Source: Escherichia coli (lineage in GTDB: Bacteria > Pseudomonadota > Gammaproteobacteria > Enterobacterales > Enterobacteriaceae). Taken from it: DNA of 64,000 bases. Position numbers and translations under genes: made by a program. Numbering within the stretch: the first letter of the stretch is position 1; each line of letters begins with the position of its first letter. Of this stretch, positions 1,735-63,477 are shown piece after piece. A model generated the notes under the pieces. It did not search any database and was not told where the DNA came from. It worked only from the letters and a program-made list of their open reading frames with translations. The stretch lies in NCBI GenBank assembly GCA_005400705.1, contig GCA_005400705.1_4079.1; one strand, written 5' to 3'.

Positions 1735-1795
1735 ATTCGTACCAGGGGTTGACTCTGGTATTTTTGTATGATACATTGTCCTAAAGGAGAATTTT

Positions 1796-2347
1796 ATGAA
1801 CTACAATCATGATCTTTTTACATTATGTGCATCCAAATGTGTTGATGGATGGACAGATAAAATCAATACCATAATTCATCGATATCTGGTCTTTAGTTCT
1901 CGTGCACGAAGTGAGGGGGCTATGGATTTCAAATATACACTATCTATTGATGGTGTAACTATCCATGCAGACGAAGAACGTCTGAGCATTAATTTGTATG
2001 ATTCCTGTGTATTTGCTATTCACCAAAAGATGGGGAAAGGATGGGGTTGTAATAACATTAACTCAAAAGCTATCTTTTGGGTTGGTCACCACCAGACAGT
2101 ACTTGATCCTTCAATCAAATCTAATCTTTTATCCGATAATATGGTTTATGATTTATTGTACTCCGAAGAACAACATTTTCAGTTAAGTACATTACATGAT
2201 CTGGCACAGTACGAGGATTGTTACAAAACATTAGAACTATGCCATTCCCTTGAACTTAAAGATAAATTGATACAAGTTTACCCTTCATTCTTTCATGAAG
2301 AAGTACAAAGTACACTAGATCATATTTTATATGGATACGATAAATGA
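1796..2347 (+). CDS. hypothetical protein, FQLST-motif paralog family
   Basis: AAAGGAGA Shine-Dalgarno before ATG 1796; motif EEQHFQLSTLHDLAQYED. Confidence 0.55.
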   Translation: MNYNHDLFTLCASKCVDGWTDKINTIIHRYLVFSSRARSEGAMDFKYTLSIDGVTIHADEERLSINLYDSCVFAIHQKMGKGWGCNNINSKAIFWVGHHQTVLDPSIKSNLLSDNMVYDLLYSEEQHFQLSTLHDLAQYEDCYKTLELCHSLELKDKLIQVYPSFFHEEVQSTLDHILYGYDK

Positions 2348-2946
2348 GAAAAAGTTATCAAGAAGCTATTGACTTAATTCGTGAAGTTATCAAGGTGGCT
2401 CCTGCTGCTATTGAGTTCAAGAAGTCCATATACAAGAAGTATGGTTCAATGTCGAGTATGTGCTTTCAAAAGAAACGTAGAGCATTCACTACCCAGTACT
2501 GGAATGATTCTATCATCCTGAGCAATGAGACTCAGCGTATTTTAACACTAGAATCTGAACCTAATGAGTACGGGGAAGGGAACATTTGTGTACCTGATTA
2601 TGATGAAATTAACTTCAACTGCGGTGATTTTGAAACAACATTATTACTTCATGAGGGTTATCCAGAAGGTGATGTATTAGCTGAGTACAATCCAAAAACT
2701 AAAATTCTCAAAAGAGGAATCCAGTTCACTATTAATAACAAAGATGATGTTCAAGCAGCACTGATGCAACTGAGTACAAGTGAACCTATCACTATTAGTG
2801 TAGAAGAGTTATGGGGAATTATTTCAGTACTCAATGAGTGCTATAAAGTAAAATCATTGCGTAAACACAGCATTATATTACATACCAATATGGCAAATAT
2901 AAAATGTAAGCACATTCAAGAAATGGTGGTTCCAGATGGACTTTAA
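2344..2946 (+). CDS. hypothetical protein (200 aa)
   Basis: ORF track; ATGA overlap with upstream gene. Confidence 0.5.
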   Translation: MRKSYQEAIDLIREVIKVAPAAIEFKKSIYKKYGSMSSMCFQKKRRAFTTQYWNDSIILSNETQRILTLESEPNEYGEGNICVPDYDEINFNCGDFETTLLLHEGYPEGDVLAEYNPKTKILKRGIQFTINNKDDVQAALMQLSTSEPITISVEELWGIISVLNECYKVKSLRKHSIILHTNMANIKCKHIQEMVVPDGL

Positions 2947-3520
2947 AGAAATTGAAAGTAAATTAAAGTACTTCAAAGATATCAAACTTCTTTGGGAAAA
3001 GTATAAAGTTGATTACAATTTCAGTGATGATGACACTGTAAAAACAATTGAGATTAATATCAAAATCAAGTTCAAGAATAATAATTATGGTGAAGTAACC
3101 TTAAATCATACTGGTATATCACTCAAGGACTATGATGGTTCAACACTCGCATATTTTGACTTCACACCAGAACCAGGTGAAACACTACTTAGTGAGATAA
3201 ATTCCTATGACATGGAAGTGTTCGGCGGGAATCCGTTACTGTTCCGACTTTCTGAAGATTGGAGTGAAGAATACTACACTTACAAAGATGGTGTAGTACT
3301 TGACATTAATGGTGAAGTTGTGAATGACTTGGAAGAACGCTTGTTCCAAGAATTGTGTGTTTCAAATACTTCATATGCATACAATCATATCCTTGACATG
3401 TTTGATTTATATAGTAAAATAGATGCTGAAATGAATGCACATGGTATTCATTATCTTACAATCAACGACTATGCTCAACTTGAAACTGTAGTGAAAGCAT
3501 TGACTAAAGTACTGAAATAG
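2936..3520 (+). CDS. hypothetical protein (194 aa)
   Basis: ORF track. Confidence 0.5.
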   Translation: MDFKEIESKLKYFKDIKLLWEKYKVDYNFSDDDTVKTIEINIKIKFKNNNYGEVTLNHTGISLKDYDGSTLAYFDFTPEPGETLLSEINSYDMEVFGGNPLLFRLSEDWSEEYYTYKDGVVLDINGEVVNDLEERLFQELCVSNTSYAYNHILDMFDLYSKIDAEMNAHGIHYLTINDYAQLETVVKALTKVLK

Positions 3521-3529
3521 GAATGAAAT

Positions 3530-3943
3530 ATGAAACTGTATCATGCGAGTACTGTAAAAATTGATAACTTTTATATCCCGTATGGTGGTCTTCATATGGG
3601 AGGTAAACACAGTGCTTTGGAAGCTGCATTACGCAAGCTCAGAAGTCCACTGAACGTAGTAGACGCATGTACAGTATACTTGCATACCTTAGAAGTTGAT
3701 GTTGATAACGTGCTTCTGTGTGAAGATTTAGGCAGTGATGATGAGTGGCGTTCACTTATTGAGAATTGCACTGCTCAAGGTTATGATGCTGTTCAGTACA
3801 AAAATGATTACGAGCCAGACAATGTTCCTAGTTTTATGATTTGGGATGCATCTAAAGTTCGCATCATTGAAGTTGATGCTATGCATATGGATGAAGCTGA
3901 AATGATTATCGAAGATTTTCTTGATGAATATGAAGGTGTATAA
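3530..3943 (+). CDS. hypothetical protein (137 aa)
   Basis: ORF track; GGAATGAAATATG context. Confidence 0.5.
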   Translation: MKLYHASTVKIDNFYIPYGGLHMGGKHSALEAALRKLRSPLNVVDACTVYLHTLEVDVDNVLLCEDLGSDDEWRSLIENCTAQGYDAVQYKNDYEPDNVPSFMIWDASKVRIIEVDAMHMDEAEMIIEDFLDEYEGV

Positions 3944-4461
3944 TGATTGAACCTATGACAGTACTAGCACGTACTAAATTATTATTGAGGATTGGTGAGA
4001 TATTCACTGATATTTTGTACAGTGGGATTGATATACTTGAATTAGGCATTAAGCAACCGTGGGAATTAACCAAGTTCTCTGCGTTCCATCGTTTATCCTA
4101 TAAAGGGGAAACGGTTCTTGACTTGAACCCCAAAGCCAGATTCATGGACTATGCAGCTTTATATGGAACATGTGGAGGAATAACAAATGATTTCAAAGAA
4201 ATTAAAGTTCAAACAGCGTCACATGAATTTAATGATTTATTATATCCAGAATTTAAGTTAACAGAAGAATCATTCTTCCAGTACTCATTGATTTTAAAAG
4301 ATCTTAATGATTTAGAGTACTACAAAGAGTTAGTAGATATTTTTATTAATACACGACTTTCAAAAGATATTGTGATATTCTGGTATACAGAGCATGTTAC
4401 GGAGGAATTGCTTACTGAATTTCTTCTAAATATGACAGCTATAAAGGAGAAGTTATGTTAG
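3943..4461 (+). CDS. hypothetical protein (172 aa)
   Basis: ORF track; start overlaps upstream stop. Confidence 0.5.
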   Translation: MIEPMTVLARTKLLLRIGEIFTDILYSGIDILELGIKQPWELTKFSAFHRLSYKGETVLDLNPKARFMDYAALYGTCGGITNDFKEIKVQTASHEFNDLLYPEFKLTEESFFQYSLILKDLNDLEYYKELVDIFINTRLSKDIVIFWYTEHVTEELLTEFLLNMTAIKEKLC

Positions 4462-4928
4462 ATATTTTAGGAAACATCGACACTGCAAATTATTTTATTC
4501 AAGATGCATTGTTTAATACAGTACAACAAGGTTTAGAAGTTCACCACAATGTTTATCAGGGTGATGGATATTTTGTTGATATTATCGAGACACGTAAAAA
4601 TACATTTAATGTTAACATTACGACGCTTGGAAGACAGAACATTGCACGAATTTTAGTAAGTAAAGATGAAATAGTACTGAGATACAGTGCTAAGTTTATG
4701 TTGACTTATAAGAAAAAAACTGATATGTTCAGTACTAATTTATTTGATGAGCCATTTGACCTTGAAGATATTGAAGCTACTTTCTTTACTCAAAGTACTA
4801 TGGTAAAATACACTGATGTTCAATTTTCTGCTGATGTAATGTCAGAAACATTACAAATGATCAAGGTATTATTTTATGCATTTGAGCAATTTAGAGAAGA
4901 AAGAAACAAGGTTAACAACCACAGATGA
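4455..4928 (+). CDS. hypothetical protein (157 aa)
   Basis: ORF track; AAGGAGAAG before start. Confidence 0.5.
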   Translation: MLDILGNIDTANYFIQDALFNTVQQGLEVHHNVYQGDGYFVDIIETRKNTFNVNITTLGRQNIARILVSKDEIVLRYSAKFMLTYKKKTDMFSTNLFDEPFDLEDIEATFFTQSTMVKYTDVQFSADVMSETLQMIKVLFYAFEQFREERNKVNNHR

Positions 4929-5289
4929 ACTAATAGAGGCGATCACTAAGGAGTCAAAATACCATAAAGGTATTCGTCTATACTTTATAGATACTGGTTC
5001 GATGGAAGGTACATACATTTATGGTTCACAATCGTTGTCTTATGATGCAATGCCAAATAAACATGTTAAAATCTTTTTAGGTTCAAGTAATAAAACTTTC
5101 TTGACAATTAATGATAGCAGTGTTATTATGAATTCGTTGGGTCATGATAAGGTGGAAATTGATCTAAACACGCTGGAGGATATTGATTTTTTTCAATACG
5201 AGTGTTTAGGTGTTGACTTACATGGCATTAGTAGCGATATGATAAAATCATTAATCAAATATTTCGAAGGTGTTCATAAATGTATCTAA
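4876..5289 (+). CDS. hypothetical protein; true start uncertain (53-nt overlap with upstream ORF)
   Basis: ORF track. Confidence 0.4.
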   Translation: MHLSNLEKKETRLTTTDELIEAITKESKYHKGIRLYFIDTGSMEGTYIYGSQSLSYDAMPNKHVKIFLGSSNKTFLTINDSSVIMNSLGHDKVEIDLNTLEDIDFFQYECLGVDLHGISSDMIKSLIKYFEGVHKCI

Positions 5290-5777
5290 CTAAATCAATG
5301 AAAAATTCATTTGATAAAATCAAGAGTTGTCTTGATGGAGAAAATATTACAAGTGTTACACAAACTGCTGACCAAATTCAAAGCAGTTCAAGTGATTGCA
5401 CTGTTATTTTTGGTTTACATAGTCTGCGTTTATCAATAGTAAATAATATTGACAACACTGCTATTGTAATCACACCATGCAATATTCAAAATGAGAATGG
5501 TGTATATCTTCATCACATGGGAACAGTATTTCACATTTTCAATTCAAACGAAAACATTGTTAAGGAATACAATACTCTTAATATTGATTCAGGTGAATTA
5601 TTTCAAATGAGTACTTTGTACTCATGTAATTTTACAGATACTTCATGTATTTTGCCATTTTTCTTGGAAATTATTAAGAAAATGGAAAATTTAAAACGTG
5701 AATACAATAAAGAAATGGTTCCTGAAGCTATATTAAATATTACTAATGCTATAGAGAAGTATAATGCAGTGACTTAA
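5280..5777 (+). CDS. hypothetical protein, FQMST-motif paralog family
   Basis: ORF track; motif SGELFQMSTLYSC. Confidence 0.5.
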   Translation: MYLTKSMKNSFDKIKSCLDGENITSVTQTADQIQSSSSDCTVIFGLHSLRLSIVNNIDNTAIVITPCNIQNENGVYLHHMGTVFHIFNSNENIVKEYNTLNIDSGELFQMSTLYSCNFTDTSCILPFFLEIIKKMENLKREYNKEMVPEAILNITNAIEKYNAVT

Positions 5778-5819
5778 TAAAAACGCACATGGAGTGCATT
5801 AGAAGATCAAGGATAGATC

Positions 5820-6293
5820 ATGGAGATTAAAACTGTTGAAAATGGGAAAATTGATGACATTTTAGAGTTGGACGCATTCAAAGTTCATGATATAATGTTT
5901 AATGTGAAGGACATTATTCAATGTCTATTTTTGTGTAGCAAGACAATGCATGATTTTTTTCACAACCCAAATACTAACGTTTTTATACTAACAATCAGTA
6001 CTGAAAACTCGTTTATCATGGGTATGCCTATGAGTACAAATGAACAATATATTGATTGTGTTATTCGTAATAACGATAGTATTACGCCACAATCTGAAGT
6101 ACGTAAAAAGAAAAACACCTACACAATCAAAGATGATAAAATTATGATGTGCTGTAGTAAAGGGTTTATATTAGATAATTTTATCGTAAAAGACAGTTAT
6201 CACGACTTTAAAGTATCTGAAAATCAATCCAATGTAGTTCTTTATGCGAGTGACATAGAAAGTCTAACAGTTAAAGATCCCAGTTTGGAGTAA
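5820..6293 (+). CDS. hypothetical protein (157 aa)
   Basis: ORF track. Confidence 0.5.
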   Translation: MEIKTVENGKIDDILELDAFKVHDIMFNVKDIIQCLFLCSKTMHDFFHNPNTNVFILTISTENSFIMGMPMSTNEQYIDCVIRNNDSITPQSEVRKKKNTYTIKDDKIMMCCSKGFILDNFIVKDSYHDFKVSENQSNVVLYASDIESLTVKDPSLE

Positions 6294-6295
6294 GT

Positions 6296-6427
6296 ATGGC
6301 TAAGAAAGTAAACAATTTCGTACAGAAACACATGAATGAGTTTAACAAGCCTCAGACACATGTGGATCGTAAAAAAGAAATGAAAAATGGTAAAGTAAAA
6401 CACAAGTCGAGATTTATTCTCGACTAA
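6296..6427 (+). CDS. small basic protein (43 aa, MAKKVNNFVQKH...), below ORF-track size cutoff
   Basis: ATG at 6296 immediately after upstream stop; uninterrupted frame to TAA at 6425-6427. Confidence 0.3.
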   Translation: MAKKVNNFVQKHMNEFNKPQTHVDRKKEMKNGKVKHKSRFILD

Positions 6428-6450
6428 TTTTTTGTATAAATTTATGAGGA

Positions 6451-7305
6451 TTGTATATGTTAGACATTTCAGATTTTCTTAATTTTAAAAAGTATTCAGT
6501 ACTTGAACATATCAACGAATTTCTGAATTCTACTACACCATTTGGTATCAGTACATCAGATGTATACGATGGATATACAATCTTCCCATACAATGACTTT
6601 CAAATTTCCGTCAAAAAAGGTTTTACAAAAGAAGTTGCAATTCGTGATGTAGTAATGTATAGCGATTCTTCTATTTCTTACTGTCATGATGTGAACAAGT
6701 TTGAATCTCTTGCAACACCTAATTGTTCATACTACAAATCCCATGACACGATGATGTATAAAGAACAACATATCAATGGTGTTTCGTTCTATAAAACTAG
6801 CAGTGATAAATCATATACATCTAGAGATGATTTTGGAAAATACACATGTACTATGCACACGGATAATGAAAAAACAAATTACACTCATTCATTCGAGTCC
6901 AAATTCCAAGAGAGTGAAGTTTCAAATATCACTATACAAGAACAGGTTTCAGAAGGCATTGTATATCGTAGCACTGCATTCTTTCGCATGAAAGATATTG
7001 TCACAGGCAGACCAATGATGTACAATATTGACATATACATGAAAGGTGATATATCCGAAGTAGTGATTAGTACTGGTTATCGTGAAAAATATACAGTTAC
7101 AATGGAATCACCAGATGCATCATTAGTTCACCTCTTTAACAATTTATATACATTCCAATTCGAACTTAGTTTCGATCCAAATGAATATCAAATATTTGAT
7201 ATATTAAAAAGTAATATTATTAATAAGTTAGAATATTACTACAAGTTAGGTGGTAAGATGTGCATAGTTAATACTATGTTACATAACATAAAAGAAACAT
7301 TATAA
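6451..7305 (+). CDS. hypothetical protein (284 aa)
   Basis: ORF track; GAGGA before start; TATAAATT late-promoter-like site at 6435. Confidence 0.5.
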   Translation: MYMLDISDFLNFKKYSVLEHINEFLNSTTPFGISTSDVYDGYTIFPYNDFQISVKKGFTKEVAIRDVVMYSDSSISYCHDVNKFESLATPNCSYYKSHDTMMYKEQHINGVSFYKTSSDKSYTSRDDFGKYTCTMHTDNEKTNYTHSFESKFQESEVSNITIQEQVSEGIVYRSTAFFRMKDIVTGRPMMYNIDIYMKGDISEVVISTGYREKYTVTMESPDASLVHLFNNLYTFQFELSFDPNEYQIFDILKSNIINKLEYYYKLGGKMCIVNTMLHNIKETL

Positions 7306-7321
7306 ATCTGGAGGATTTGGT

Positions 7322-7615
7322 ATGGATACTAAATTCAAAATTATTTTTAAAACTAAGCCGTATATTCCACATACAGCAGAACGTTTTATACCACATGGTG
7401 CTGAGGAAATTATTCACCAAGATGGTACTAAGTTATACCTTGTTCCTTGTTCTTATGAACGTGCAGTAGAAATGTTGCTAATGAATGCTAGACTATGCAA
7501 AAACAAGTACATTAGTTACCTATACAATGAACATATTTTAGATTTCAATGATGAAAATATGTTCATTCTAGCAATTGAGGATTTTGATAACTGGTACAAT
7601 ATTATTAAAATCTAA
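7322..7615 (+). CDS. hypothetical protein (97 aa)
   Basis: ORF track; GGAGGA Shine-Dalgarno. Confidence 0.5.
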   Translation: MDTKFKIIFKTKPYIPHTAERFIPHGAEEIIHQDGTKLYLVPCSYERAVEMLLMNARLCKNKYISYLYNEHILDFNDENMFILAIEDFDNWYNIIKI

Positions 7616-7625
7616 TGAAAATAAT

Positions 7626-7670
7626 GTGAACATATTAGATTCTTGTGATATAATGTTCACATCTTTTTTT
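7626..7670 (+). terminator. hairpin (GTGAACAT / ATGTTCAC) followed by T-run; an extended -10 is embedded in its 3' arm
   Basis: inverted repeat 7626-7633 / 7653-7660 followed by TCTTTTTTT. Confidence 0.5.
7646..7654 (+). promoter_or_regulatory. extended -10 promoter element TGATATAAT
   Basis: exact TGnTATAAT match ~30 nt upstream of gene at 7687. Confidence 0.4.
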
Positions 7671-9365: not shown

Positions 9366-9397
9366 GGTGACAACATAATATGTTAGTCACCTTTTTT
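9366..9397 (+). terminator. rho-independent terminator
   Basis: stem GGTGAC...GTCACC followed by TTTTTT. Confidence 0.7.
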
Positions 9398-9399
9398 AA

Positions 9400-9935
9400 T
9401 CCTGAAAGGTTCCCATAAGGAAATGATTAAAAGCCTAATCCACTCGAAAATGTAGAGGGTAGATGAGTAGTCCTTTCAGTACGAACAGCAGATGAAACCC
9501 GTTAGATGATGGCATAGTTTGAACCACTCACGGCAATGCGGCTGTATAAAGAACTCCAATAGGATAAAGAGAGTTCCTCGATAGACATATAAGGATCGCA
9601 CCTTACCAATTATCTAAGGGAGATTTCATAAGAAATATGCGGTCGGAATTATACAATATAGTTGCGTCCAAATTTTGTGAAATCAAATACAAGTACTGGT
9701 CATATGGTATTTGTATTATGTGTCGGGATGTTTAAGACCGACGACCGTTGCTACAAGAACCGCGATAGAGAGAAACAGAGCAACCCGCTTTCGTCTCGTA
9801 AGAGAATTCGTGATATGAACTATGTGAAGGCCACCAGCGTCAAATTTTTTTGTTCTTTCCCCTGCGGGGGGATGAAATATGCTCAAGCAAACCCCGTCAA
9901 TATTAATTAAAAGAAAATAGTACTTGTAGAATTAG
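9400..9935. other. GC-enriched ORF-free island with nested inverted repeats; candidate structured non-coding RNA
   Basis: no credible ORF; visibly higher G+C than flanks; CCTGAAAGG (9402) pairs with CCTTTCAG (9471); hairpins GTCGG...CCGAC (9722-9742) and CCCCTGCGGGG (9860-9872). Confidence 0.35.
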
Positions 9936-9937
9936 AC

Positions 9938-10558
9938 ATGCGTAGCATGATAATTCTACTGATGTTGATGCAATCAACGTCACGTATATTCATTGATGTT
10001 TCCATAGGAATAATGATGGCATTTATTAGAAAAGAAAAAACTGTTACTTATAAAACTTTGAATTTTGATGATTGCATTAATCAATCACAAGACGAAGATA
10101 TCTTTACTGGATATGTGGTTATTAAAGAAAAAGGATGCATTTCTTATATAAAGGAATTACAAAATGGAATTGAAGTGACTTCAGTTAAATTACTTCCTAC
10201 TCAAAAACCAACAATATCAAAAGCCCAGTATGGTAATTATTTTGAAGAAAGATATAGTAATAATTCAATAAGTGTTAAGGCTCATATTATTAAAGGAGAA
10301 CTAGAAGGAGAATATAGAAAATACAACCCACAAGGAAAATGTGTTTGGGTTAAATACTTCAATTCAGGATATGATGTAACATCTGAAATTATAGAATTCT
10401 TGGGTTTAAAATGTACCCCTGAGACTATTCATGATTACAAGTTCAATACTGAAGAAGAGTTTAATCTGATGATGCGTTACGGTTCACATTTTAAATTTTT
10501 ATATGAATATAACATTGACAGTAGTACTTTTGATAAGATAGTACACAACTGTCTCTAA
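9938..10558 (+). CDS. hypothetical protein with MORN/YwqK-like repeat signature
   Basis: ORF track; GEYRKYNPQGKCVWVKYFNSG resembles MORN-type repeats; start could be an internal ATG. Confidence 0.45.
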   Translation: MRSMIILLMLMQSTSRIFIDVSIGIMMAFIRKEKTVTYKTLNFDDCINQSQDEDIFTGYVVIKEKGCISYIKELQNGIEVTSVKLLPTQKPTISKAQYGNYFEERYSNNSISVKAHIIKGELEGEYRKYNPQGKCVWVKYFNSGYDVTSEIIEFLGLKCTPETIHDYKFNTEEEFNLMMRYGSHFKFLYEYNIDSSTFDKIVHNCL

Positions 10559-10574
10559 CAAAAGGAATTATATA

Positions 10575-11096
10575 ATGTCGAAGAAGGATGCTTCGAAAAA
10601 ACATTCAGTACATTTCAGTACTGGAAAAGATAACTGGACAACTCCCAAAGATTTCTTTGAAGATTTGGATGAGTTATGGGGATTTACACTTGATGCTGCT
10701 TGTGTTGATGAGACTGCATTGTGTGATAATTTTTTCACTCCAGAAGATGATTCACTATCACAGGATTGGGGAAATAATATAGTTTGGTTGAATCCACCAT
10801 ACAGTGACTTGAAAACTTGGTTATCTAAAGCAGTAGATGCATATAATAACGGGGCAACTGTAGTTATTCTTGTACCCTCAAGAACCGACACAATTGCTTT
10901 TCAGGATTATGCTGCTAAAATATGTGATTGTATTTGTTTTATTAAGGGAAGATTACGATTTGGTATACCAGAAGAACCCGATAAGAAAACAGATTCAGCA
11001 CCATTTCCTTCGTGTCTGATAGTACTGGATAAGTACTTAACCACTGCTAAAATCAATTATCTTAAATCTCTTGGGTTGGTGATGAAGAATTTATGA
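10575..11096 (+). CDS. DNA N6-adenine methyltransferase (phage Dam-like)
   Basis: AAAGGA Shine-Dalgarno; catalytic NPPY motif (VWLNPPYSD) typical of N6-adenine/N4-cytosine methyltransferases. Confidence 0.8.
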   Translation: MSKKDASKKHSVHFSTGKDNWTTPKDFFEDLDELWGFTLDAACVDETALCDNFFTPEDDSLSQDWGNNIVWLNPPYSDLKTWLSKAVDAYNNGATVVILVPSRTDTIAFQDYAAKICDCICFIKGRLRFGIPEEPDKKTDSAPFPSCLIVLDKYLTTAKINYLKSLGLVMKNL

Positions 11097-11626
11097 AAGA
11101 AACATGTGTATTAACGTTTGGTCGTATTAATCCTGTACATCGTGGACATGGTTTAGTTTTTGAAAAGGCCAAAACATTACAAGAACAGTACAATGCTGAT
11201 TTAAAAATATATCTAAGCACCAGTACTGACAATATAAAAAACCCACTCCCACCTGAACTAAAAATGTATTATACAGAGGGATTCTATCCTTCAGTGCAAG
11301 AGAACATCTACACAGAAGACAATCTGTTTGATATAATGAGAGAACTGGATGGAAAGTACTTAGATGTTCTTTTCATATGTGGTTCTGACCGTATTGATTC
11401 TTTTCAAAAAACTCTTGACATGTACAATGGTAAGTTGTATAATTTTTGTAGTATAAAAGCAATTCAGGCAGGTATTGACCGTAATGTAAGTCAATATAGC
11501 TCAACACAAATGCGTAACTTCGCAAAAAATGAAGATTTTGATAGTTTTCGTGAGTTTTTACCTGGAAATGACGAGGACTTAAAAATACAATTATTTGAAG
11601 ACGTTATAAAATACATGAGGAAATAA
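11093..11626 (+). CDS. HxGH-family nucleotidyltransferase, NMN/NaMN adenylyltransferase-like
   Basis: TFGRINPVHRGH (H/TxGH motif) and later SSTQMRN (ISSTxIR-like) typical of NadD/NMNAT-class enzymes; ATGA overlap with methyltransferase gene. Confidence 0.55.
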   Translation: MKETCVLTFGRINPVHRGHGLVFEKAKTLQEQYNADLKIYLSTSTDNIKNPLPPELKMYYTEGFYPSVQENIYTEDNLFDIMRELDGKYLDVLFICGSDRIDSFQKTLDMYNGKLYNFCSIKAIQAGIDRNVSQYSSTQMRNFAKNEDFDSFREFLPGNDEDLKIQLFEDVIKYMRK

Positions 11627-11628
11627 TT

Positions 11629-11922
11629 ATGTCAGTACTGTTCAAAACCAATCCAGTACTTTGGGATCAAAATGAGCAATCAGGATTTCGTTCCATCCAT
11701 GTTGAATACAAAGGTAATACTGTAGTTGCAATTATTGCTAACAAAACTCTAGGAAACTGGACTGCACAGGTTGTTCCTATGGGATATTCTTACACATCTG
11801 ATGAGGTTCAATTCCTGGCTGAACTATATCGTCAAGTGCCGTTTATCATTAATGTACTAGAAGGTAATGATACATTATCACATGAAGATGTGATTAATTT
11901 TCTTGGAAACTTACATGTGTGA
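11629..11922 (+). CDS. hypothetical protein (97 aa)
   Basis: ORF track; GAGGAAATAATTATG. Confidence 0.5.
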   Translation: MSVLFKTNPVLWDQNEQSGFRSIHVEYKGNTVVAIIANKTLGNWTAQVVPMGYSYTSDEVQFLAELYRQVPFIINVLEGNDTLSHEDVINFLGNLHV

Positions 11923-12202
11923 TGAAATAAATCTTACAGGATATTTTTTACAAGAATCAATGATTAAATTTAGTGATAAATTTTCAGTACTGGATGGTAT
12001 CGAAATGTGGCATGTCAAACCACTGTTCCACACTTTCAGTAAAGAGCACAAAATGTTATTGACTGAAGCCAGTAAATCAAATAACATATGTGAAATCAAA
12101 ATTGGTGTAAATGTCTATAAAGGGATGGTTATCTTTTTTGACAATAACAGCAACTACTTTTATATTGTTAAGGAGCATTACGTTGACAAATACAAATACT
12201 AA
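11903..12202 (+). CDS. hypothetical protein (99 aa)
   Basis: ORF track. Confidence 0.5.
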   Translation: METYMCDEINLTGYFLQESMIKFSDKFSVLDGIEMWHVKPLFHTFSKEHKMLLTEASKSNNICEIKIGVNVYKGMVIFFDNNSNYFYIVKEHYVDKYKY

Positions 12203-12797
12203 TACATATTTCCGTTATCTTCGCTTAGGTCTTTCCCTACGTCCGATCCGTGGAAAGTGCGATTCACTCGCTGACCTTGACTATGCATATGCATTACATC
12301 ATGAAGGTGTACAGTATGTATTGGGTGATTATGGTGAATTTGAAGAAACAAATGACAGTACTGGAATTAATGCTGGTGTAGAAAATCTTAACAACATTGC
12401 TAACAGTTCTCGCCATGACATTGTGTTACAGATTCAAAACTTTATTGAGCAGCACACAGGTAAACGTGTTTGGTGCTATGTCGGTACGGATGCACAAATG
12501 TCAATTTCATTCGGTAACGATGAAGGATATGTTGCACAGCTTATTATGGATTTTGAATCTGAAGAGAAGTTTTTAGAATTCAAAGAAAAGATTATTCAGT
12601 CACTTGTTGATATGGGTATCCCCGAAGATAAAATGCCAGAAGTCCAAAACATTGATGAATTTGTTTTGATTCCATCTGATGAGAAATATGATGCAATGTT
12701 TACTGCTCTTAATATTCCAGGAGTTATTGTGGAGTACTTTGATGATGGTGATGATAGTATCTATATCGATCTAGATGACGATGACGACGATGAATAA
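12111..12797 (+). CDS. hypothetical protein with poly-acidic C-terminus (DDGDDSIYIDLDDDDDDE); start uncertain
   Basis: ORF track; 92-nt overlap with upstream gene; no internal in-frame ATG until far downstream. Confidence 0.4.
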   Translation: MSIKGWLSFLTITATTFILLRSITLTNTNTNTYFRYLRLGLSLRPIRGKCDSLADLDYAYALHHEGVQYVLGDYGEFEETNDSTGINAGVENLNNIANSSRHDIVLQIQNFIEQHTGKRVWCYVGTDAQMSISFGNDEGYVAQLIMDFESEEKFLEFKEKIIQSLVDMGIPEDKMPEVQNIDEFVLIPSDEKYDAMFTALNIPGVIVEYFDDGDDSIYIDLDDDDDDE

Positions 12798-12843: not shown

Positions 12844-13119
12844 ATGAATTATAAAGTTCTACAATATACATACAGTGTTTTGTTTGATTTACATCACAAT
12901 GGAAGATATCTCAATACAATACGAGAAAACACATTCACTCATACTATCTGGATTAATCACTTAATAATGATACGTGAATATTTTGTTAATAGTGAGATAA
13001 TCATTCGTGGTAAAAAACAGAAGATAGAACAAGTTAATAGTTTTGGTGGTAAATTAGTACTATCATTTATAGATAGTAATACTAATGAAAGATATAGTAT
13101 AGATTTGGTGGACATATGA
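12844..13119 (+). CDS. small protein, tandem paralog array member
   Basis: AAGGGGATATATG; N-terminal YxxLxDL-type motif shared with following ORFs. Confidence 0.5.
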   Translation: MNYKVLQYTYSVLFDLHHNGRYLNTIRENTFTHTIWINHLIMIREYFVNSEIIIRGKKQKIEQVNSFGGKLVLSFIDSNTNERYSIDLVDI

Positions 13120-13382
13120 ATTATAAAGATTTCCTACTAACATACAAGATTATTCGAGATTTAGCACACGACAATGATAGCCCTAGTCTAGAAGACACAT
13201 GCACTGAAATGATTCATACAATTCGTGGTAAGATTAAAAAAAAATTCAGTACTGTTATTATTGGTGATGACCATGCAGAATTTTCTGATATAATCATTAG
13301 ACGTGATGGTAAAGTTGAGGTTCAGTACTACACTGATTTTGGATTTACCAGTATTCCGTTGGAGATATTCCCTTGGGATTAA
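13116..13382 (+). CDS. small protein, tandem paralog array member
   Basis: ATGA overlap; MNYKDFLLTYKIIRDL N-terminus similar to upstream ORF (MNYKVLQYTYSVLFDL). Confidence 0.5.
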   Translation: MNYKDFLLTYKIIRDLAHDNDSPSLEDTCTEMIHTIRGKIKKKFSTVIIGDDHAEFSDIIIRRDGKVEVQYYTDFGFTSIPLEIFPWD

Positions 13383-13684
13383 ATTTAAATGATATACAAT
13401 TCACTTATAAGATCCTATATGATTTGTATGATTTATACCTTGTTAGTAACAAAATAGGTTCACATAACTCATCCAAAGAACAACCATTTATTGATTTATA
13501 TATTGAGTACTTAGATTCAGTAGGTGAATATATAAAAAAGAATTACAGTACTTTTAACGATGGAAATGATATATTCGAGTTCTCTGGAGTTAAATCATAC
13601 AATGGGATTATCCATGTTGAATTTCTTGAAATAACCGATAGGGGATTTATCGAGATTAAAGTTGTGAAGTTGGTGAATTTATAA
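13373..13684 (+). CDS. small protein, tandem paralog array member (TTG start)
   Basis: GGAG 8 nt upstream of TTG at 13373; N-terminus LNDIQFTYKILYDLY matches next ORF. Confidence 0.45.
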   Translation: MGLNLNDIQFTYKILYDLYDLYLVSNKIGSHNSSKEQPFIDLYIEYLDSVGEYIKKNYSTFNDGNDIFEFSGVKSYNGIIHVEFLEITDRGFIEIKVVKLVNL

Positions 13685-13694
13685 GAGGTTACAT

Positions 13695-14006
13695 ATGTTA
13701 TTAAATGATATACAATTCACATACAAATTTTTGTATATCCAATACGCTACGGTTGATGCTGGAGAATATCTCTACGGTGAAATCTATCGTTCGGTATGGA
13801 TAAAGTTTTTGGATGAATTACATGAATATTACCATGATTTGTGTATAGTTCGTGATAATAAAATATACAAATTCCGCGATATTGTTAGTCATAGCGGTAA
13901 GCTACGATTGGAATTAAGTACTGATAGTGATGTTGATTGGATTGGTGTAAATTTACTGGAGTTGGAGAATGAAAAACAACTTAAAGGAAATACAAGTATT
14001 TTATAA
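13695..14006 (+). CDS. small protein, tandem paralog array member
   Basis: AGAGG before ATG; N-terminus MLLNDIQFTYKFLYIQY. Confidence 0.5.
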   Translation: MLLNDIQFTYKFLYIQYATVDAGEYLYGEIYRSVWIKFLDELHEYYHDLCIVRDNKIYKFRDIVSHSGKLRLELSTDSDVDWIGVNLLELENEKQLKGNTSIL

Positions 14007-14253
14007 ATTCTTATACTTGTCATATGTAAAAGATGAGTACTATGAAAGTGTGTATTATTTTTTATGGCAACATTACCGTACTATAGTAAGAGATTTATAT
14101 ATAGGAAAATCTATCATATCCAATGGTGAAAAATGTATATGTACTGATGTTGTTAGTTTTAATGGTTCTTTAACACTGTGTTTCAGATGCGATAATAATA
14201 GTGGGTCATTTTCATTAAACGTATATCAGTTAGAAGGAATAAATTTTGAATAA
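13969..14253 (+). CDS. small protein, tandem paralog array member
   Basis: N-terminus MKNNLKEIQVFYKFLYLSY fits family; 38-nt overlap with upstream gene. Confidence 0.45.
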   Translation: MKNNLKEIQVFYKFLYLSYVKDEYYESVYYFLWQHYRTIVRDLYIGKSIISNGEKCICTDVVSFNGSLTLCFRCDNNSGSFSLNVYQLEGINFE

Positions 14254-35548: not shown

Positions 35549-35675
35549 CTGTTATAAACTGTACACCTTAAGTTTTATTTTTTAAAAATTTGAGTTAAGT
35601 ACAGAAAAAGTTTGACTTAAGTGTTTAAGTACTATATTATTTATATCTTCCTAAACAAAATTGAGGACTTGTTAT

Positions 35676-36284
35676 ATGAAAAGACTATGGCTTGAAGTGA
35701 TACAAGCAGCAATGTTTCTATTGTTAATAAATTTTCCAGCCAGTGCTGGTATTGAAAGTAAAAATGTGATAAAGTATAATCCTGAAACCCGAAATGTATA
35801 TTTCATATCAGATATTACAGATGGGTCACTCAAGAGAATGATAGAGTTGTATGATAAAGAACACTATGATACCATCACAATTACATCTCCTGGTGGTGAT
35901 TTTGATGCAGGTATTCGAATGGCAAACTTTGTTAGAGACAATGGGATAAATTTAATTGTTTCTAGGTATTGCAATTCAGCATGTACTGTGGTATTCTTTA
36001 GTGTATCTCCCGAAAAGCGATATATGACAAATCGCTCAGTACTGGGTCTTCATAACATTTCGATTAAAAGTAATGTTACTGATGGTGATAATTCATTTGT
36101 ATCTGTAAGACAGCTATCAACTTTTACCGAAGAAATGGCAACAAAGGTAGGTTTCCTTTTTTCACTATATGCAGCAAATGGAATCCCACCAGAAGTACTA
36201 TTTAGAGTTAGTCGTTCTCGTGGTGAAGATGTTGTAATATTAACAAAACCAGAACTGGTTTTTTACGGTTCAGTCAAACAATAA
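35676..36284 (+). CDS. secreted/periplasmic ClpP-class (SPGG-motif) serine protease-like protein
   Basis: signal-peptide-like MKRLWLEVIQAAMFLLLINFPASA; ITSPGGDFDAG ... CNSACT follows ClpP spacing; ATG 35676 with GAGGA upstream (ORF-track start 35661 is TTG). Confidence 0.55.
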   Translation: MKRLWLEVIQAAMFLLLINFPASAGIESKNVIKYNPETRNVYFISDITDGSLKRMIELYDKEHYDTITITSPGGDFDAGIRMANFVRDNGINLIVSRYCNSACTVVFFSVSPEKRYMTNRSVLGLHNISIKSNVTDGDNSFVSVRQLSTFTEEMATKVGFLFSLYAANGIPPEVLFRVSRSRGEDVVILTKPELVFYGSVKQ

Positions 36285-36354
36285 AAATAATTAAAATAAC
36301 AGGATGATTATGATGTACTTCCTTTGTTATTAATTATATTGAGATTATATAACT

Positions 36355-36615
36355 ATGACAAACATCCAAAACTTGACATCTATTATTTTTTATGCTACTG
36401 TAGTAATGTATGCTACAGTTATTTTTCTAACAGTTTTCATTTACAAAGATTATCGCAATGGCTTTATTGATCCAACTACAATGAAGTTCAATTCAAAATT
36501 CGAAGCAATAATTTATTATGTACTATCAACTTCATACTTGGTGTGCCTAATGTTGTTAGGAGCACTAATTTATATCTTATACACAACATTATTTGCAATT
36601 GGAGCTATTTTATGA
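36355..36615 (+). CDS. small two-TM membrane protein
   Basis: two long hydrophobic segments. Confidence 0.5.
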   Translation: MTNIQNLTSIIFYATVVMYATVIFLTVFIYKDYRNGFIDPTTMKFNSKFEAIIYYVLSTSYLVCLMLLGALIYILYTTLFAIGAIL

Positions 36616-37205
36616 CCTGTATTATTGCACACACTAACGGAGTAAGTTCTTTTATTGCTGGGGATAAGTTAGGAAGCAATGGATTTACAAAAACTGTTCA
36701 AACTGAACCAAAGGTATTCGAGAAAGAATTTATCAAGTTACATGATGATGGACTAACAAGAACTAAAGAAGTAATGGCATTGGGTTATACTACATCATTT
36801 CGTATGGGTCAGTTGTTAAATTATAACCTTAATTTACCTGAACAAGATGCTAGTCAAACATTTTCACAATATTTGGTTCTTAAAGTTATTCCAATTATTC
36901 GTCAAATGTTTAAAGAAGAATGGGGTGCACGAGATGCATCACAAGATGTAGGTGGTGGACAATTTATCATTCTCCACAATCATACAATCTATGAAGTTCA
37001 AGAAGACTTTTCAGTACTACAACCTAAAACAAGAATTACCGCAGTAGGTAGTGGGACATATCATGCAATTGCAGCAATGCAAGCATATATTGAAGTTGAG
37101 AACGAATCTAAAAAACCACTACACGAACGTATCAAATCAATTTTTAAAATTGTTAGTGATAATGTAACAAGCGTAAGCGAAGAGTTTGATGTTTTAAAAT
37201 ATTAA
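36612..37205 (+). CDS. HslV / proteasome beta-subunit-like Ntn hydrolase
   Basis: MTCIIAHTNGVSSFIAGD (Thr2 then IAGD) and AVGSGTYHAIAAMQA parallel HslV N-terminus and GSGG region; GGAG before ATG 36612. Confidence 0.55.
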   Translation: MTCIIAHTNGVSSFIAGDKLGSNGFTKTVQTEPKVFEKEFIKLHDDGLTRTKEVMALGYTTSFRMGQLLNYNLNLPEQDASQTFSQYLVLKVIPIIRQMFKEEWGARDASQDVGGGQFIILHNHTIYEVQEDFSVLQPKTRITAVGSGTYHAIAAMQAYIEVENESKKPLHERIKSIFKIVSDNVTSVSEEFDVLKY

Positions 37206-37232
37206 AAGTACTAATATTATAAGAGAGAATAG

Positions 37233-37427
37233 ATGATGGCATACACAATTTATGAATGGGTTTTGAGTTTTTTTATAGTTTTTTCTATTGTTGTAATTTA
37301 TAACCATGCTAAATGCTTATATAGGGACTTGAAATCCAATGGTTATCACAAAGATAATAATTTTATGTATGCCTATCATATTGGAATCATTCTGTTATTA
37401 TCAATATATTTAATTGTTTTTTTATAA
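37233..37427 (+). CDS. small two-TM membrane protein
   Basis: hydrophobic segments. Confidence 0.45.
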   Translation: MMAYTIYEWVLSFFIVFSIVVIYNHAKCLYRDLKSNGYHKDNNFMYAYHIGIILLLSIYLIVFL

Positions 37428-37436
37428 GGATTGAAT

Positions 37437-38189
37437 ATGATATCAGAAAAATTTATAAGCAATGAAGGTAAAAAGCGATTACTGATTATATCAGGTGCAG
37501 GACTTTCTGTTGAAAGTGGTATGGAACCTTTTCGATTTGATGATGGTTTGTGGGATACATTTAAAATTAATGATGTATGTAACATTGCGAGTTTAACTAC
37601 AAAATATCATGTTGTTCATTCTTTCTATAATACATTACGTGTAAAATTGGGACAATGCGAACCGAATGCAATGCATTATTTTATAAAATCGTTAGAAGAT
37701 CAATATGGTGATTGCTTCCTTCATATGACTTCTAACATGGACGATCTTTATACTCGTATTGGTGGTCATGAGCTTAAACTTCATGGAAACTTGTGTGAAG
37801 TTATTGAAAATTATAGTATCAATTCCGATGATTATAATGTTATTAACTGCGGATACGAACCATACATACCAAAACATGATGTTTTTGCTAAACCAAATGT
37901 AGTAATGATTGGAGAATATCATCGTTATGTTGATGGTATTCGCTTACCAATTTACGAAGAACGAAATAATGTGTTGAAATCTCTTAATGAAAATGATACA
38001 GTTATTGTAATTGGTAGTAGCGATACAGTACTGGTATGGTCGAGATTAGCAGCAGCATTGCCATGTTATAGTGTTAATGTTAACATTCGTAAAAATGATA
38101 ATGATTTTTTGTTTAATGAAAAAGTTATCAAGCCAGCAACCAAAGCAATACCGCATCTAGAGACTATAATTAAGGAACGTATGAAATGA
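37437..38189 (+). CDS. Sir2-family (sirtuin/CobB-like) NAD-dependent protein
   Basis: GAGLSVESGMEPFRFDDGLW, TSNMDDLYTRIG and LHG align with CobB GAGISAESGI / TQNIDNLH / HG motifs; AAGGA before ATG 37437. Confidence 0.75.
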   Translation: MISEKFISNEGKKRLLIISGAGLSVESGMEPFRFDDGLWDTFKINDVCNIASLTTKYHVVHSFYNTLRVKLGQCEPNAMHYFIKSLEDQYGDCFLHMTSNMDDLYTRIGGHELKLHGNLCEVIENYSINSDDYNVINCGYEPYIPKHDVFAKPNVVMIGEYHRYVDGIRLPIYEERNNVLKSLNENDTVIVIGSSDTVLVWSRLAAALPCYSVNVNIRKNDNDFLFNEKVIKPATKAIPHLETIIKERMK

Positions 38190-38737
38190 GTGTTAAAGAA
38201 GTTCCCTTTGGTGAATATGGCACACGTGCAAATTTTGTATTTTGTTATTTCTTTGCAAGAAAATGCAACCCTTACAAAAACTATGAGTTGAATGATATAC
38301 CAGAAGTAAATTTAGTATTACTGCAATTACGATGGGATGGTCTTCTTGGTGGATGTGGTGGAACCGTAGAAAGTACTGATATCTCACTAGAAGATGCGTT
38401 GTGTCGTGAAGTTCAAGAAGAAATGGATTACAATATTTTTGTTTCCCATCTTCGACCACTCAAAACTTTTGAAATTTACCCAGGTGCAAACAGTCATAGT
38501 TTTAGCTATGAAGTGAGCTATGACGAGTTGAAACACATTAGAGATGGATACACTAATGCTAAACATGCAAGTGCAGAAGTTGCTGGTGTAAATTTATGTC
38601 ATATTTCTCGTTATTCTAAGGGACAAAATCGAGAAGCGGGATATCATAATCTTATGACACAGAACTTCATCGGTACAGCAAAACAAGAATTGGAGTATCT
38701 GGTTCAAAAAGAAAACTTACTAATTAGTTATCTATAG
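38186..38737 (+). CDS. Nudix-like hydrolase (divergent Nudix box)
   Basis: GGCGGTVESTDISLEDALCREVQEEMDY carries the REVQEE core with non-canonical spacing; ATGA overlap with Sir2 gene. Confidence 0.5.
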   Translation: MSVKEVPFGEYGTRANFVFCYFFARKCNPYKNYELNDIPEVNLVLLQLRWDGLLGGCGGTVESTDISLEDALCREVQEEMDYNIFVSHLRPLKTFEIYPGANSHSFSYEVSYDELKHIRDGYTNAKHASAEVAGVNLCHISRYSKGQNREAGYHNLMTQNFIGTAKQELEYLVQKENLLISYL

Positions 38738-38746
38738 GAGTTTAAC

Positions 38747-39067
38747 ATGTCTTACTCAATGTTTTTGGATGATATTCGTGATGCAAATCTATATTATCCA
38801 AACCAAGATATGGTGGTATGTCGTGACTTTAAAAGTGCATGTGAATATGTTATTGAAAATGGAATTCCAGCATTTGTATCATTCGACCATGACTTGGGTG
38901 ATGTGAGCGAAGACGAAAAGACTGGATATTCTTTTGCTAAGTTTCTTATTGATTATATGTTTGATAATAATATTAAAGAACCGTTTGAGTACTTTGTTCA
39001 CAGTAGTAATCCTGTTGGTAAAATTAATATTGAAACATACTTAAACAATGGATTTAACGCATTATGA
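38747..39067 (+). CDS. receiver-like (CheY-fold-like) small protein
   Basis: FLDDIRD acidic pair, VSFDHDLGD, HSSNPVGK: pattern similar to receiver / cyclic-phosphate-processing receiver domains; from memory. Confidence 0.4.
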   Translation: MSYSMFLDDIRDANLYYPNQDMVVCRDFKSACEYVIENGIPAFVSFDHDLGDVSEDEKTGYSFAKFLIDYMFDNNIKEPFEYFVHSSNPVGKINIETYLNNGFNAL

Positions 39068-63446: not shown

Positions 63447-63477
63447 CTTGACATAGAAAAAGTAATTATGTATAATT

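Follow-up and report, generated by a model that had tools for sequence, protein, structure and literature searches.

A gene of an Asteriusvirus jumbo coliphage, here termed ORF B, encodes a stand-alone nucleotidyltransferase of the HIGH superfamily that we tentatively regard (with a probability of about 0.4) as an adenylyltransferase acting on host NMN or NaMN; both the donor nucleotide and the acceptor are inferred. ORF B would adenylylate host-derived NMN or NaMN, so that NAD(+) or NaAD would be topped up during infection, and it might also help the phage against host defence. A complete salvage route encoded by the phage itself is not envisaged, since the lineage lacks Nampt and NadM-Nudix as well as annotated NadR or PnuC (see below).

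Phage and gene pair

The window, i.e. the whole stretch of 64,000 nucleotides that was analysed (contig GCA_005400705.1_4079.1), belongs to a 121Q-like jumbo coliphage, with 95-98% DNA identity to 121Q throughout. Identity reached 99.5% in region 10575-11626, where ORF A and ORF B encode proteins 100% identical to 121Q gp417 and gp418, annotated 'DNA methyltransferase' and 'cytidyltransferase', respectively. They are an ordinary early-region gene pair of this Asteriusvirus, already annotated in 121Q, PBECO4, phAPEC6 and relatives, and the window itself adds nothing new. The 121Q genome (348.5 kb) served as a proxy for the window phage in whole-genome gene-content searches. No RNA family was detected between 9200 and 12000 (Rfam), and minus-strand ORFs within the region (e.g. 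10568-10891) were discarded as shadow ORFs of the plus-strand genes.

ORF A and its junction with ORF B

ORF A (10575-11096, plus strand, 173 aa) is a Dam-family N6-adenine DNA methyltransferase. It matched Pfam Dam (PF05869, E 7.4e-32, 110.8 bits for a cut-off of 28.1, residues 16-156) and phrog_111 'DNA methyltransferase' (E 7e-57), and the catalytic NPPY motif mentioned in the preliminary description was found at N73-P-P-Y76 (10791-10802, plus strand) by reading the sequence and its translation. With the NCBIfam equivalog for phage Dam proteins (TIGR01712, phage_N6A_met) ORF A scored 91.5 bits, slightly under the cut-off of 97.05; despite this near miss, membership of the Dam family stands at the family level. 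ORF A presumably methylates phage DNA and would thereby protect it from restriction.

The TGA of ORF A (11094-11096) and the ATG of ORF B (11093-11095) share the ATGA at 11093-11096 (plus strand). The two genes had been described as translationally coupled; the stop/start overlap is real, implying co-transcription and possibly coupled translation, but such overlaps are a generic feature of this genome (19/102 gene junctions, or about one in five, in the homologous 50 kb of 121Q) and are not evidence of a shared pathway. The pair was conserved across four genera, with an identical 4-base overlap in K64-1 and distances of 3 and 8 bases in GAP32 and Yen9-04, respectively. Since the whole surrounding region is syntenic in these related phages, descent explains the adjacency. 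No Dam gene adjoined the ORF B family member in Ettore, DLP_6 or the cyanophages and, among the loci examined outside this clade, no methylase of any kind was next to it. Functional coupling of Dam and ORF B was therefore rejected as unsupported, adjacency being confined to a single syntenic phage clade and ATGA overlaps being common. The same observations bear on a joint action of both proteins on DNA, in which ORF B would, for instance, supply a modification alongside adenine methylation with an activated, nucleotide-linked donor. The overlapping or nearly abutting arrangement in four genera is what such a partnership would predict; yet it is accounted for by synteny, the family never accompanied a methylase elsewhere and no transferase able to use such a donor was found nearby, which makes this idea highly improbable.

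Fold, motifs and family of ORF B

ORF B (11093-11626, plus strand, 177 aa) belongs to the phrog_3041/cyanophage T4-GC190 family, as it aligned with phrog_3041 'cytidyltransferase' over its full length (residues 2-176, E 8.5e-58). Like those of ORF A with PF05869 and phrog_111, this profile match is far beyond chance. The HxGH and SxTxxR motifs previously noted were both confirmed. The first (H16-R-G-H19; 11138-11149, plus strand) forms the nucleotide-binding loop after strand 1 and is included in the family signature (F/Y)GRxNPx(T/H)xGH, whereas the second nucleotide-binding motif is S136-S-T-Q-M-R141 (11498-11515, plus strand). H19 was invariant in family alignments, where G10, R11, P14 and G18 were at least 90% conserved, and S136 and R141 were, together with H19, invariant in 42 diverse homologues. 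In the AlphaFold2 model (pLDDT 86.9), HxGH is predicted between a strand (residues 4-10) and a helix (17-32), and SxTxxR within a helix (130-145) of the C-terminal helical part. ORF B displayed the Rossmann-like alpha/beta fold that is common to PPAT, NMNAT and GCT.

At the sequence level the family is divergent, broad alignments of it containing no conserved stretch of 7-10 residues, and its membership of the HIGH superfamily rests on fold and motifs. ORF B scored 17.3 bits with Pfam PF01467, under the gathering score of 21, and 29 of 66 long homologues matched this model at E<=1e-4. Neither the single sequence nor a profile of 12 close members found a match in the PDB. The family was recorded in 560 phage records and in 3419 cluster representatives (exhaustive representative search, clusters at 50% identity), and is apparently large and virus-specific.

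HIGH-superfamily enzymes transfer an NMP (usually AMP from ATP) to the phosphate of a small acceptor, with release of pyrophosphate. In the ORF B family, the acceptor-binding C-terminal half displays a signature of its own (GSDR ... YNGxxYxF ... AGxR). Judging from sequence, ORF B thus appears NadM-like in its N-terminal nucleotide-binding half only, the acceptor half being family-specific.

Comparison with NMNAT, PPAT and FAD synthase

ORF B had been described as NMNAT-like. The superfamily was right; yet ORF B cannot be confirmed as an NMNAT, since it reached no curated NMNAT cut-off and, in the acceptor half, the family aligned with NadM at SxTxxR only. Indeed, none of the curated NMNAT, PPAT and FAD-synthase models reached its cut-off with ORF B. 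The best curated NMNAT score was obtained with NadD (TIGR00482) and amounted to 19.8 bits for a cut-off of 112.45, over residues 8-28 only. No such model gave ORF B more than 20 bits, whereas the control, RaK2 NadM-Nudix, received 267.7 bits (E 1.6e-79), a score itself under the cut-off of 397 of that model.

Several observations were nevertheless counted in favour of an NMNAT. Sub-threshold NCBIfam matches among the 42 family members were in majority to N(a)MNAT models (NadD 29, archaeal-type 18, NadR 16), as compared to 10 weak ones to CoaD (TIGR01510) and at most 10 to FAD synthase. The HMM of these 42 members scored 32.6 bits (E 6e-7) with RaK2 NadM-Nudix, above any PPAT of the PDB (24 bits). 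The motifs are NadM-like as well, the family GRxNPxxxGH resembling GRFQxPHxGH, and SxSxDxxKNPL resembling ...KNPFTFEER, of RaK2 NadM-Nudix. This similarity covers half of the protein: the alignment spans profile positions 2-93 and touches the acceptor half at SxTxxR only. Likewise, likeness of ORF B to NadM-type NMNATs in general (archaeal MJ0541, NadM-Nudix of Francisella and Synechocystis, phage NatV of KVP40 and RaK2 ORF498) was limited to residues 2-93.

Other comparisons pointed elsewhere. When the 42-member profile was run against the PDB, NMNATs aligned with the N-terminal 60-90 residues only; PPATs were the only proteins aligned over the full length, at 13-18% identity and with a weak score of 24 bits, values by which the family also differs from CoaD/PPAT. 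The predicted fold of ORF B was a tie between PPAT and NadM-type NMNAT, the top Foldseek matches all being PPATs. In the viral structure library its nearest neighbours were all 'cytidyltransferase-like' phage proteins and the first NMNAT-named protein came at rank 47. Finally, the best curated match of the K64-1 orthologue was, nearly over its full length, the RibF_rel FAD-synthase model (E 6.7e-6, residues 2-150). Profile comparison of NMNATs with other subfamilies hence gave neither a clean NAD nor a clean non-NAD result.

A different acceptor for ORF B, such as FMN, 4'-phosphopantetheine, a sugar or polyol phosphate or an undescribed nucleotide derivative, is nearly as likely as host NMN or NaMN. 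The family would then be a virus-specific enzyme that acts in the metabolism of nucleotides or nucleic acids and not in NAD synthesis, in line with the PPAT and FAD-synthase matches and with the acceptor-half signature, which has no counterpart in NadM. These matches are as weak as the NMNAT ones (24-26 bits), and both the higher score of the phage NadM domain and the more numerous N(a)MNAT matches across family members speak against such an acceptor. As for PPAT activity in particular, we know of no reason why a phage would need extra CoA synthesis.

Gene content for NAD synthesis

The preliminary description linked ORF B, as a phage NAD-salvage step, to Sir2 and Nudix genes at 37437-38737. 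These genes are real. Sir2 (37437-38189, plus strand; Pfam SIR2, E 3.6e-20) is followed by a Nudt16-like Nudix gene (38186-38737, plus strand; Pfam E 3.4e-18) and by a gene for a cREC cyclic-phosphate-processing domain (38747-39067, plus strand; cREC_REC, E 1.5e-22), and their products were 63, 53 and 61% identical, respectively, to RaK2 counterparts (ORFs 502-504). The link itself did not hold. The cluster lies 26 kb from ORF B, and tblastn searches of the whole 121Q genome with RaK2 proteins found neither the Nampt partner that had been suggested (best E 0.064) nor a NadM-Nudix (best E 1.8). Neither NadR nor PnuC is annotated in 121Q, and Asteriusvirus was absent among the 60 best Nampt-bearing phages. 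ORF B itself carries neither a kinase nor a Nudix domain, the latter distinguishing it from NadM-Nudix proteins.

E. coli itself is not known to possess Nampt, so that nicotinamide released by NADases could not directly reach an NMNAT. This weighs on the proposal that ORF B is the NMNAT of a NARP2-like NAD reconstitution which, together with Sir2 and Nudix, would oppose NAD-depleting immunity and be coupled to the anti-restriction methylase as an anti-defence module. Phage NAD reconstitution pathways employing HIGH-superfamily NMNATs do exist (bioRxiv 10.1101/2024.02.11.579819; PMC13464706; PMC9503650). The superfamily and N-terminal half of ORF B would suit such a role, as would the Sir2 and Nudix genes of the window and a macro-domain protein encoded elsewhere in 121Q. 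If ORF B were an NMNAT, its chemistry would also be the final one of NARP2 (Nampt and NMNAT) and NARP3 (PnuC and a NadR-like protein), namely NMN + ATP -> NAD+. Yet NARP2 needs Nampt, NARP3 needs PnuC and a NadR kinase domain, and none of these was found or annotated in 121Q. Because the partner genes are absent, the NARP2-like proposal is largely refuted and we consider it improbable. Moreover, its coupling to the methylase is confronted with the clade-limited adjacency and the generic ATGA overlaps described above. According to a published computational survey, the sirtuin, Nudix and cRec domains of phages are associated with RNA repair that consumes NAD and with the processing of ADP-ribose rather than with making NAD (PMC9503650).

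In sister genera the defining partner genes do occur, in the same genome as an orthologue of ORF B. Nampt is encoded by RaK2, K64-1, GAP32 and Yen9-04, which retain the Dam-ORF B pair at another location. Directly upstream of its Sir2-Nudix genes, and away from the ORF B orthologue, RaK2 has Nampt and a canonical NadM-Nudix; in its close relative K64-1 Nampt is about 25 kb from the Dam-ORF B pair. From this gene placement, ORF B is not the NMNAT of that pathway in these phages. Its coexistence with Nampt, and in RaK2 also with NadM-Nudix, was counted against an NMNAT and in favour of a different acceptor.

Cyanophage and metagenomic relatives

Named relatives of ORF B fall into phrog_3041 and phrog_395 and include P-HM1 PHM1_162, the S-PM2 'cytitidyltransferase' and S-SCSM1 ORF91 (annotated NMNAT). 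The family occurred in more than 450 cyanophage records and in most records of T4-like cyanophages, and it has sometimes been reported in cyanophage virions. ORF B displayed 31-39% full-length identity to the cyanophage 'cytidylyltransferase' T4-GC190, with Foldseek TM scores of 0.84-0.89 and shared motifs. The coliphage protein differs in being a bare 177-aa catalytic domain encoded next to a Dam methylase, whereas many marine members reach 400-1200 aa through C-terminal extensions (DUF5824, P-loop kinases). No biochemical characterisation of any family member was found in the literature.

Evidence on the acceptor from these relatives went both ways. NaMN adenylyltransferase is the Preiss-Handler step missing from a pncA-pncB1-nadE operon. 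Phages of the PA5oct type have a family member, as found in their relative Ettore, and PA5oct induces the pncA-pncB1-nadE operon of its host (PMC7318152). This induction and the existing NMNAT annotations of cyanophage homologues (PMC9602691, PMC12801897) were counted in favour of an NMNAT. Against it were counted the large number of cyanophage records as compared to the absence of Synechococcus from the ten organism names with most Nampt-bearing records, together with the low rank of NMNAT-named structures and the non-NAD neighbours. Cyanophage members are located near gp41, MazG and a 2OG oxygenase. A three-sequence alignment uncovered 16 further loci. All of them belonged to metagenome-assembled genomes with scattered taxonomic assignments and had a phage-like gene order, so that they provided no cellular context. 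Their neighbours or fusions included DUF6267 (9/16), DUF5824, adenylate-kinase-like and AAA_33/Zeta P-loop kinases and NT5C, and no NAD gene was among the 25 neighbour families listed. The recurrence of these partners is a further argument for a different acceptor, although no conserved neighbour of known function points to a specific alternative substrate. The fused kinases were also considered as NadR-type ribosylnicotinamide kinases; this was discarded for P0039, in which the kinase domain comes nearest to adenylate kinase.

DUF6267 was near or fused to the family member in most metagenomic loci examined, and is also fused to the family domain in phrog_455. It displays the motifs KWDG, QGDL, EGYVAxD and KLVDR. 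From these motifs alone it looks like a cryptic lysine-nucleotidyl ligase and was kept only as a lead. A profile search of the PDB returned nothing for DUF6267, nor did Pfam at E<=10. Comparison by hhalign with the ATP-dependent DNA ligase of the window and with the RnlA of the window gave probabilities of 0.1% and 0.4%, respectively; in the latter case EGYVAxD..VKL was placed on EGFVC..CKI, an alignment that is not significant.

A broader and rather unlikely interpretation is that the family is a virus-specific HIGH branch whose re-modelled acceptor half binds a non-textbook substrate. Marine members would then form a module with DUF6267, P-loop kinases being its third component, for self-contained, cofactor-regenerating nucleic-acid ligation or repair or for the synthesis of a new dinucleotide, with the coliphage gene as a minimal version that stands alone.

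Implications

Gene content does not support a link of ORF B to Sir2/Nudix and to immunity by NAD depletion. If, as we tentatively propose, ORF B adenylylates NMN/NaMN as a stand-alone enzyme, there would be phages that reinforce just one step of NAD synthesis and do not encode a whole salvage pathway, and the NARP1-3 picture would be modestly extended. Given the great abundance of the family in marine T4-like cyanophages, the activity of one enzyme would annotate thousands of viral genes.

Gene pair and phage of origin

ORF A (10575-11096, + strand, 173 aa), a Dam-family N6-adenine DNA methyltransferase gene with N73-P-P-Y76, is directly followed by ORF B (11093-11626, + strand, 177 aa), a nucleotidyltransferase gene with H16-R-G-H19 and S136-S-T-Q-M-R141. 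The two overlapping ORFs and their NPPY, HxGH and SxTxxR motifs, as reported in the preliminary description, were confirmed in the sequence and its translation. Region 10000-12500 displayed 99.5% identity to Escherichia phage 121Q and 98-99.6% to phAPEC6, G17, Sharanji, SP27, PBECO4 and others, which are jumbo myoviruses of about 350 kb from genus Asteriusvirus. The window was colinear with positions 183392-245345 of 121Q (95-98% identity). The two products match 121Q gp417 and gp418 at 100% identity, proteins named 'DNA methyltransferase' and 'cytidyltransferase' in RefSeq; the genes are real, but they were catalogued before and annotations already exist. The GenBank/RefSeq entry of gp418 is also mis-annotated, with 'NrdB ribonucleotide reductase A' in its note field (in KM507819, as the product name). 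This name recurs on the UniProt entry of a cyanophage homologue, while ORF B/gp418 displayed no similarity to ribonucleotide reductase.

Translational coupling had been proposed for the pair, and the overlap is indeed real: the ATG of ORF B overlaps the TGA of ORF A (ATGA, 11093-11096). Yet such ATGA overlaps are generic (in the homologous 121Q stretch of 50 kb, 19 of 102 junctions between genes are of this kind), and Dam-ORF B adjacency was restricted to one syntenic clade, being absent in Ettore, DLP_6 and cyanophages. The arrangement implies co-transcription, not a common pathway.

The adenine methyltransferase call on ORF A, which contains NPPY, proved right, with matches to Pfam Dam (PF05869; E 7.4e-32, 110.8 bits, cut-off 28.1) and phrog_111 (E 7e-57); the score against equivalog TIGR01712 (91.5 bits) was slightly below its cut-off of 97.05. 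A protective, anti-restriction role is the conventional reading, also inferred in the phAPEC6 and Sharanji papers (PMC7247149, PMC11895373).

Fold and subfamily of ORF B

Membership of ORF B in the (T/H)xGH nucleotidyltransferase superfamily, as first described, is secure from its motifs and its fold. It matched phrog_3041 'cytidyltransferase' (E 8.5e-58) and phrog_395 (E 1e-24). An AlphaFold2 model built with 12 homologues as input (pLDDT 86.9) displayed strands and helices in Rossmann-like alternation, with HxGH between strand 1 and helix 1 and SxTxxR in a C-terminal helix. The subfamily is not secure. ORF B scored just 17.3 bits against Pfam CTP_transf_like (cut-off 21), and the NCBIfam NadD and FAD-synthase models were touched over its first 20-40 residues only (at most 20 bits; cut-offs 112-396). 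Foldseek placed phosphopantetheine adenylyltransferase (CoaD/PPAT) on top (E 7e-5, TM about 0.6), followed by NadD. Among entries of the viral structure library, the closest matches (TM 0.84-0.89) were all 'cytidyltransferase-like' phage proteins, the first NMN/NaMN adenylyltransferase (NMNAT) by name appearing at rank 47.

An alignment of 42 members yielded the family signature (F/Y)GRxNPx(T/H)xGH ... SxSxDxxKNPL ... GSDR ... YNGxxYxF ... AGxR ... S(A/S)TxMR. Against NCBIfam these members gave sub-threshold hits only, the hit counts being 29 for NadD, 18 for archaeal-type NMNAT, 16 for NadR, 10 for CoaD and at most 10 for FAD synthase. Among characterised types the family HMM scored highest against the canonical NadM-Nudix of jumbo phage RaK2 (32.6 bits), although the alignment covered only profile positions 2-93 and the SxTxxR motif; as a control, the RaK2 protein gave full-length matches to NadM-Nudix equivalog models (E 1.6e-79). 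The profile-based check against all PDB sequences was likewise divided. With NadM- and NadR-type NMNATs the alignment spanned the first 60-70 positions only (19-23 bits), and with a TmcAL-like protein the C-terminal motif, whereas PPATs alone aligned over the full length (24 bits, E about 3e-4). The latter result, together with the K64-1 orthologue, whose top curated match was the FAD-synthase model RibF_rel (E 6.7e-6), argues for an acceptor other than NMN/NaMN, a possibility that we rate as nearly as likely as NMN/NaMN. In our reading, the nucleotide-binding half would be NadM-like and the acceptor half family-specific, so that the acceptor is not assignable by homology. The 'NMNAT-like' label would then fit the N-terminal half. 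For the ORF B family every NMNAT model remained sub-threshold; NMN or NaMN as acceptor is plausible, with a probability of roughly 40%.

NAD-related gene content

The preliminary description had linked ORF B to NAD salvage and to the Sir2 and Nudix genes in countering host immunity, a link that gene content did not support. A local search of the whole 121Q genome, used as proxy, revealed neither Nampt (best E 0.064) nor NadM-Nudix (best E 1.8), nor a second ORF B copy, and no NadR or PnuC is annotated there. In Klebsiella phage RaK2, NadM-Nudix (ORF498) and Nampt (ORF500) lie immediately upstream of the Sir2-Nudix cluster (Sir2, ORF502; Nudix, ORF503; ORF504, which shares 61% identity with the cREC gene of the window). 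The window carries the orthologous Sir2 (37437-38189), Nudt16-like Nudix (38186-38737) and cREC (38747-39067) genes, but both NAD-synthesis genes are missing from this cluster. Asteriusvirus is without these two genes, lost or never acquired, and has retained the NAD-consuming cluster. Nampt (at least 50% identity to the RaK2 enzyme) occurred in all other RaK2-like genera examined, including Alcyoneusvirus, Mimasvirus, Eneladusvirus, CBB, Munch and EJP2, while Asteriusvirus was not among the best 60 matches. K64-1, GAP32 and Yen9-04 have nevertheless retained the Dam-ORF B pair at the syntenic position, 25 kb from Nampt in K64-1, so the known phage pathway has an NMNAT other than ORF B, which stands without partner where that pathway is absent.

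A computational survey tied phage sirtuin, Nudix and cRec domains to the processing of ADP-ribose and to RNA repair that consumes NAD (PMC9503650). Genes for RnlA, polynucleotide kinase and an ATP-type DNA ligase are also present in the window.

In the RaK2 locus (1791-7659; window, 35661-39067), four genes (ORF498-ORF501) separate Sir2 from the ORF497 homologue. The C-terminal part of ORF499 resembles 121Q gp584, annotated as HNH endonuclease; in place of the four genes the window has an ORF (36543-37205), and the corresponding 121Q gene carries an HslV-family peptidase annotation.

Sequences flanking the pair

The gap upstream, between an ORF ending at 9335 and one starting at 9938/9947, holds a non-coding element (9400-9940, +; about 480 nt) that is conserved and preceded by a terminator (hairpin and T-run, 9367-9397). 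Each Asteriusvirus genome has four paralogous copies (71-74% mutual identity; in 121Q, 192745-193356, 326676-327149, 90332-90783 and 247513-248041), all in large intergenic gaps. The element was found in 62 RaK2-like jumbo phage records, at 4-5 copies per genome and 275 places, mostly without annotation. RNAalifold on the four copies predicted 89 pairs, 37 with compensatory double changes, and Rfam gave no match at E<=1; the element may represent a new family of structured RNA.

Within ORF B, 11415-11443 (+) is a perfect sigma-70 consensus (TTGACA-17 nt-TATAAT) directed into small ORFs downstream. Two such sites occur in the 64-kb window (the second at 63448-63476) versus 0.08 expected by chance. 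Conserved Y-N codons fix the -10 hexamer of the former, and its -35 hexamer is not kept in K64-1. Directly downstream of the pair, 12844-14253 (+) holds tandem small paralogous ORFs (about 88-103 aa) alike at their N-terminus, e.g. 'LNDIQFTYKxLY'.

Distribution of the ORF B family

An exhaustive HMM search (E<=0.001) recovered 3419 cluster representatives. Of the 560 phage records hit by tblastn, about 460 belong to T4-like cyanophages, which have the gene under the names 'cytitidyltransferase' and T4-GC190; the remainder came from jumbo phages (RaK2-like and PA5oct-like) and a few further phages. Many homologues reach 400-1200 aa, an N-terminal transferase being joined to downstream DUF5824 or P-loop kinase domains (in one fusion, closest to adenylate kinase), and phrog_455 is a DUF6267-transferase fusion. 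In cyanophage P-HM1 the order is gp41, MazG, 2OG oxygenase, hypothetical, DUF6267, nucleotidyltransferase and a large 'possible cytitidyltransferase'. Neighbours in 16 metagenomic loci included DUF6267 (9/16), DUF5824, AAA_33/Zeta, AAA_17/18/adenylate kinase and NT5C, with no NAD-pathway family among the 25 listed.

In cyanophages and in contigs of marine phages, DUF6267 (about 400 aa) is either a neighbour of the nucleotidyltransferase or fused to it (comparison loci L005, 3784-4986, and L018-L032). Its invariant motifs KWDG, QGD, HTxY, EGxV and K...R are ordered like motifs I, III, IIIa, IV and V of covalent nucleotidyltransferases (ligases and capping enzymes), pointing to a putative unrecognised ligase in T4-like cyanophages, an idea that found no support in hhalign against two ligases, a PDB search or a Pfam search.

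Cyanophage homologues, NMNATs by annotation only, were reported from virion proteomes (PMC9602691, PMC12801897). PA5oct-type phages have a family member, found in the related phage Ettore, and PA5oct infection induces the host pncA-pncB1-nadE operon (PMC7318152), circumstantially compatible with a phage-supplied NaMN adenylyltransferase. Overall, ORF B belongs to a very abundant family of viral enzymes.
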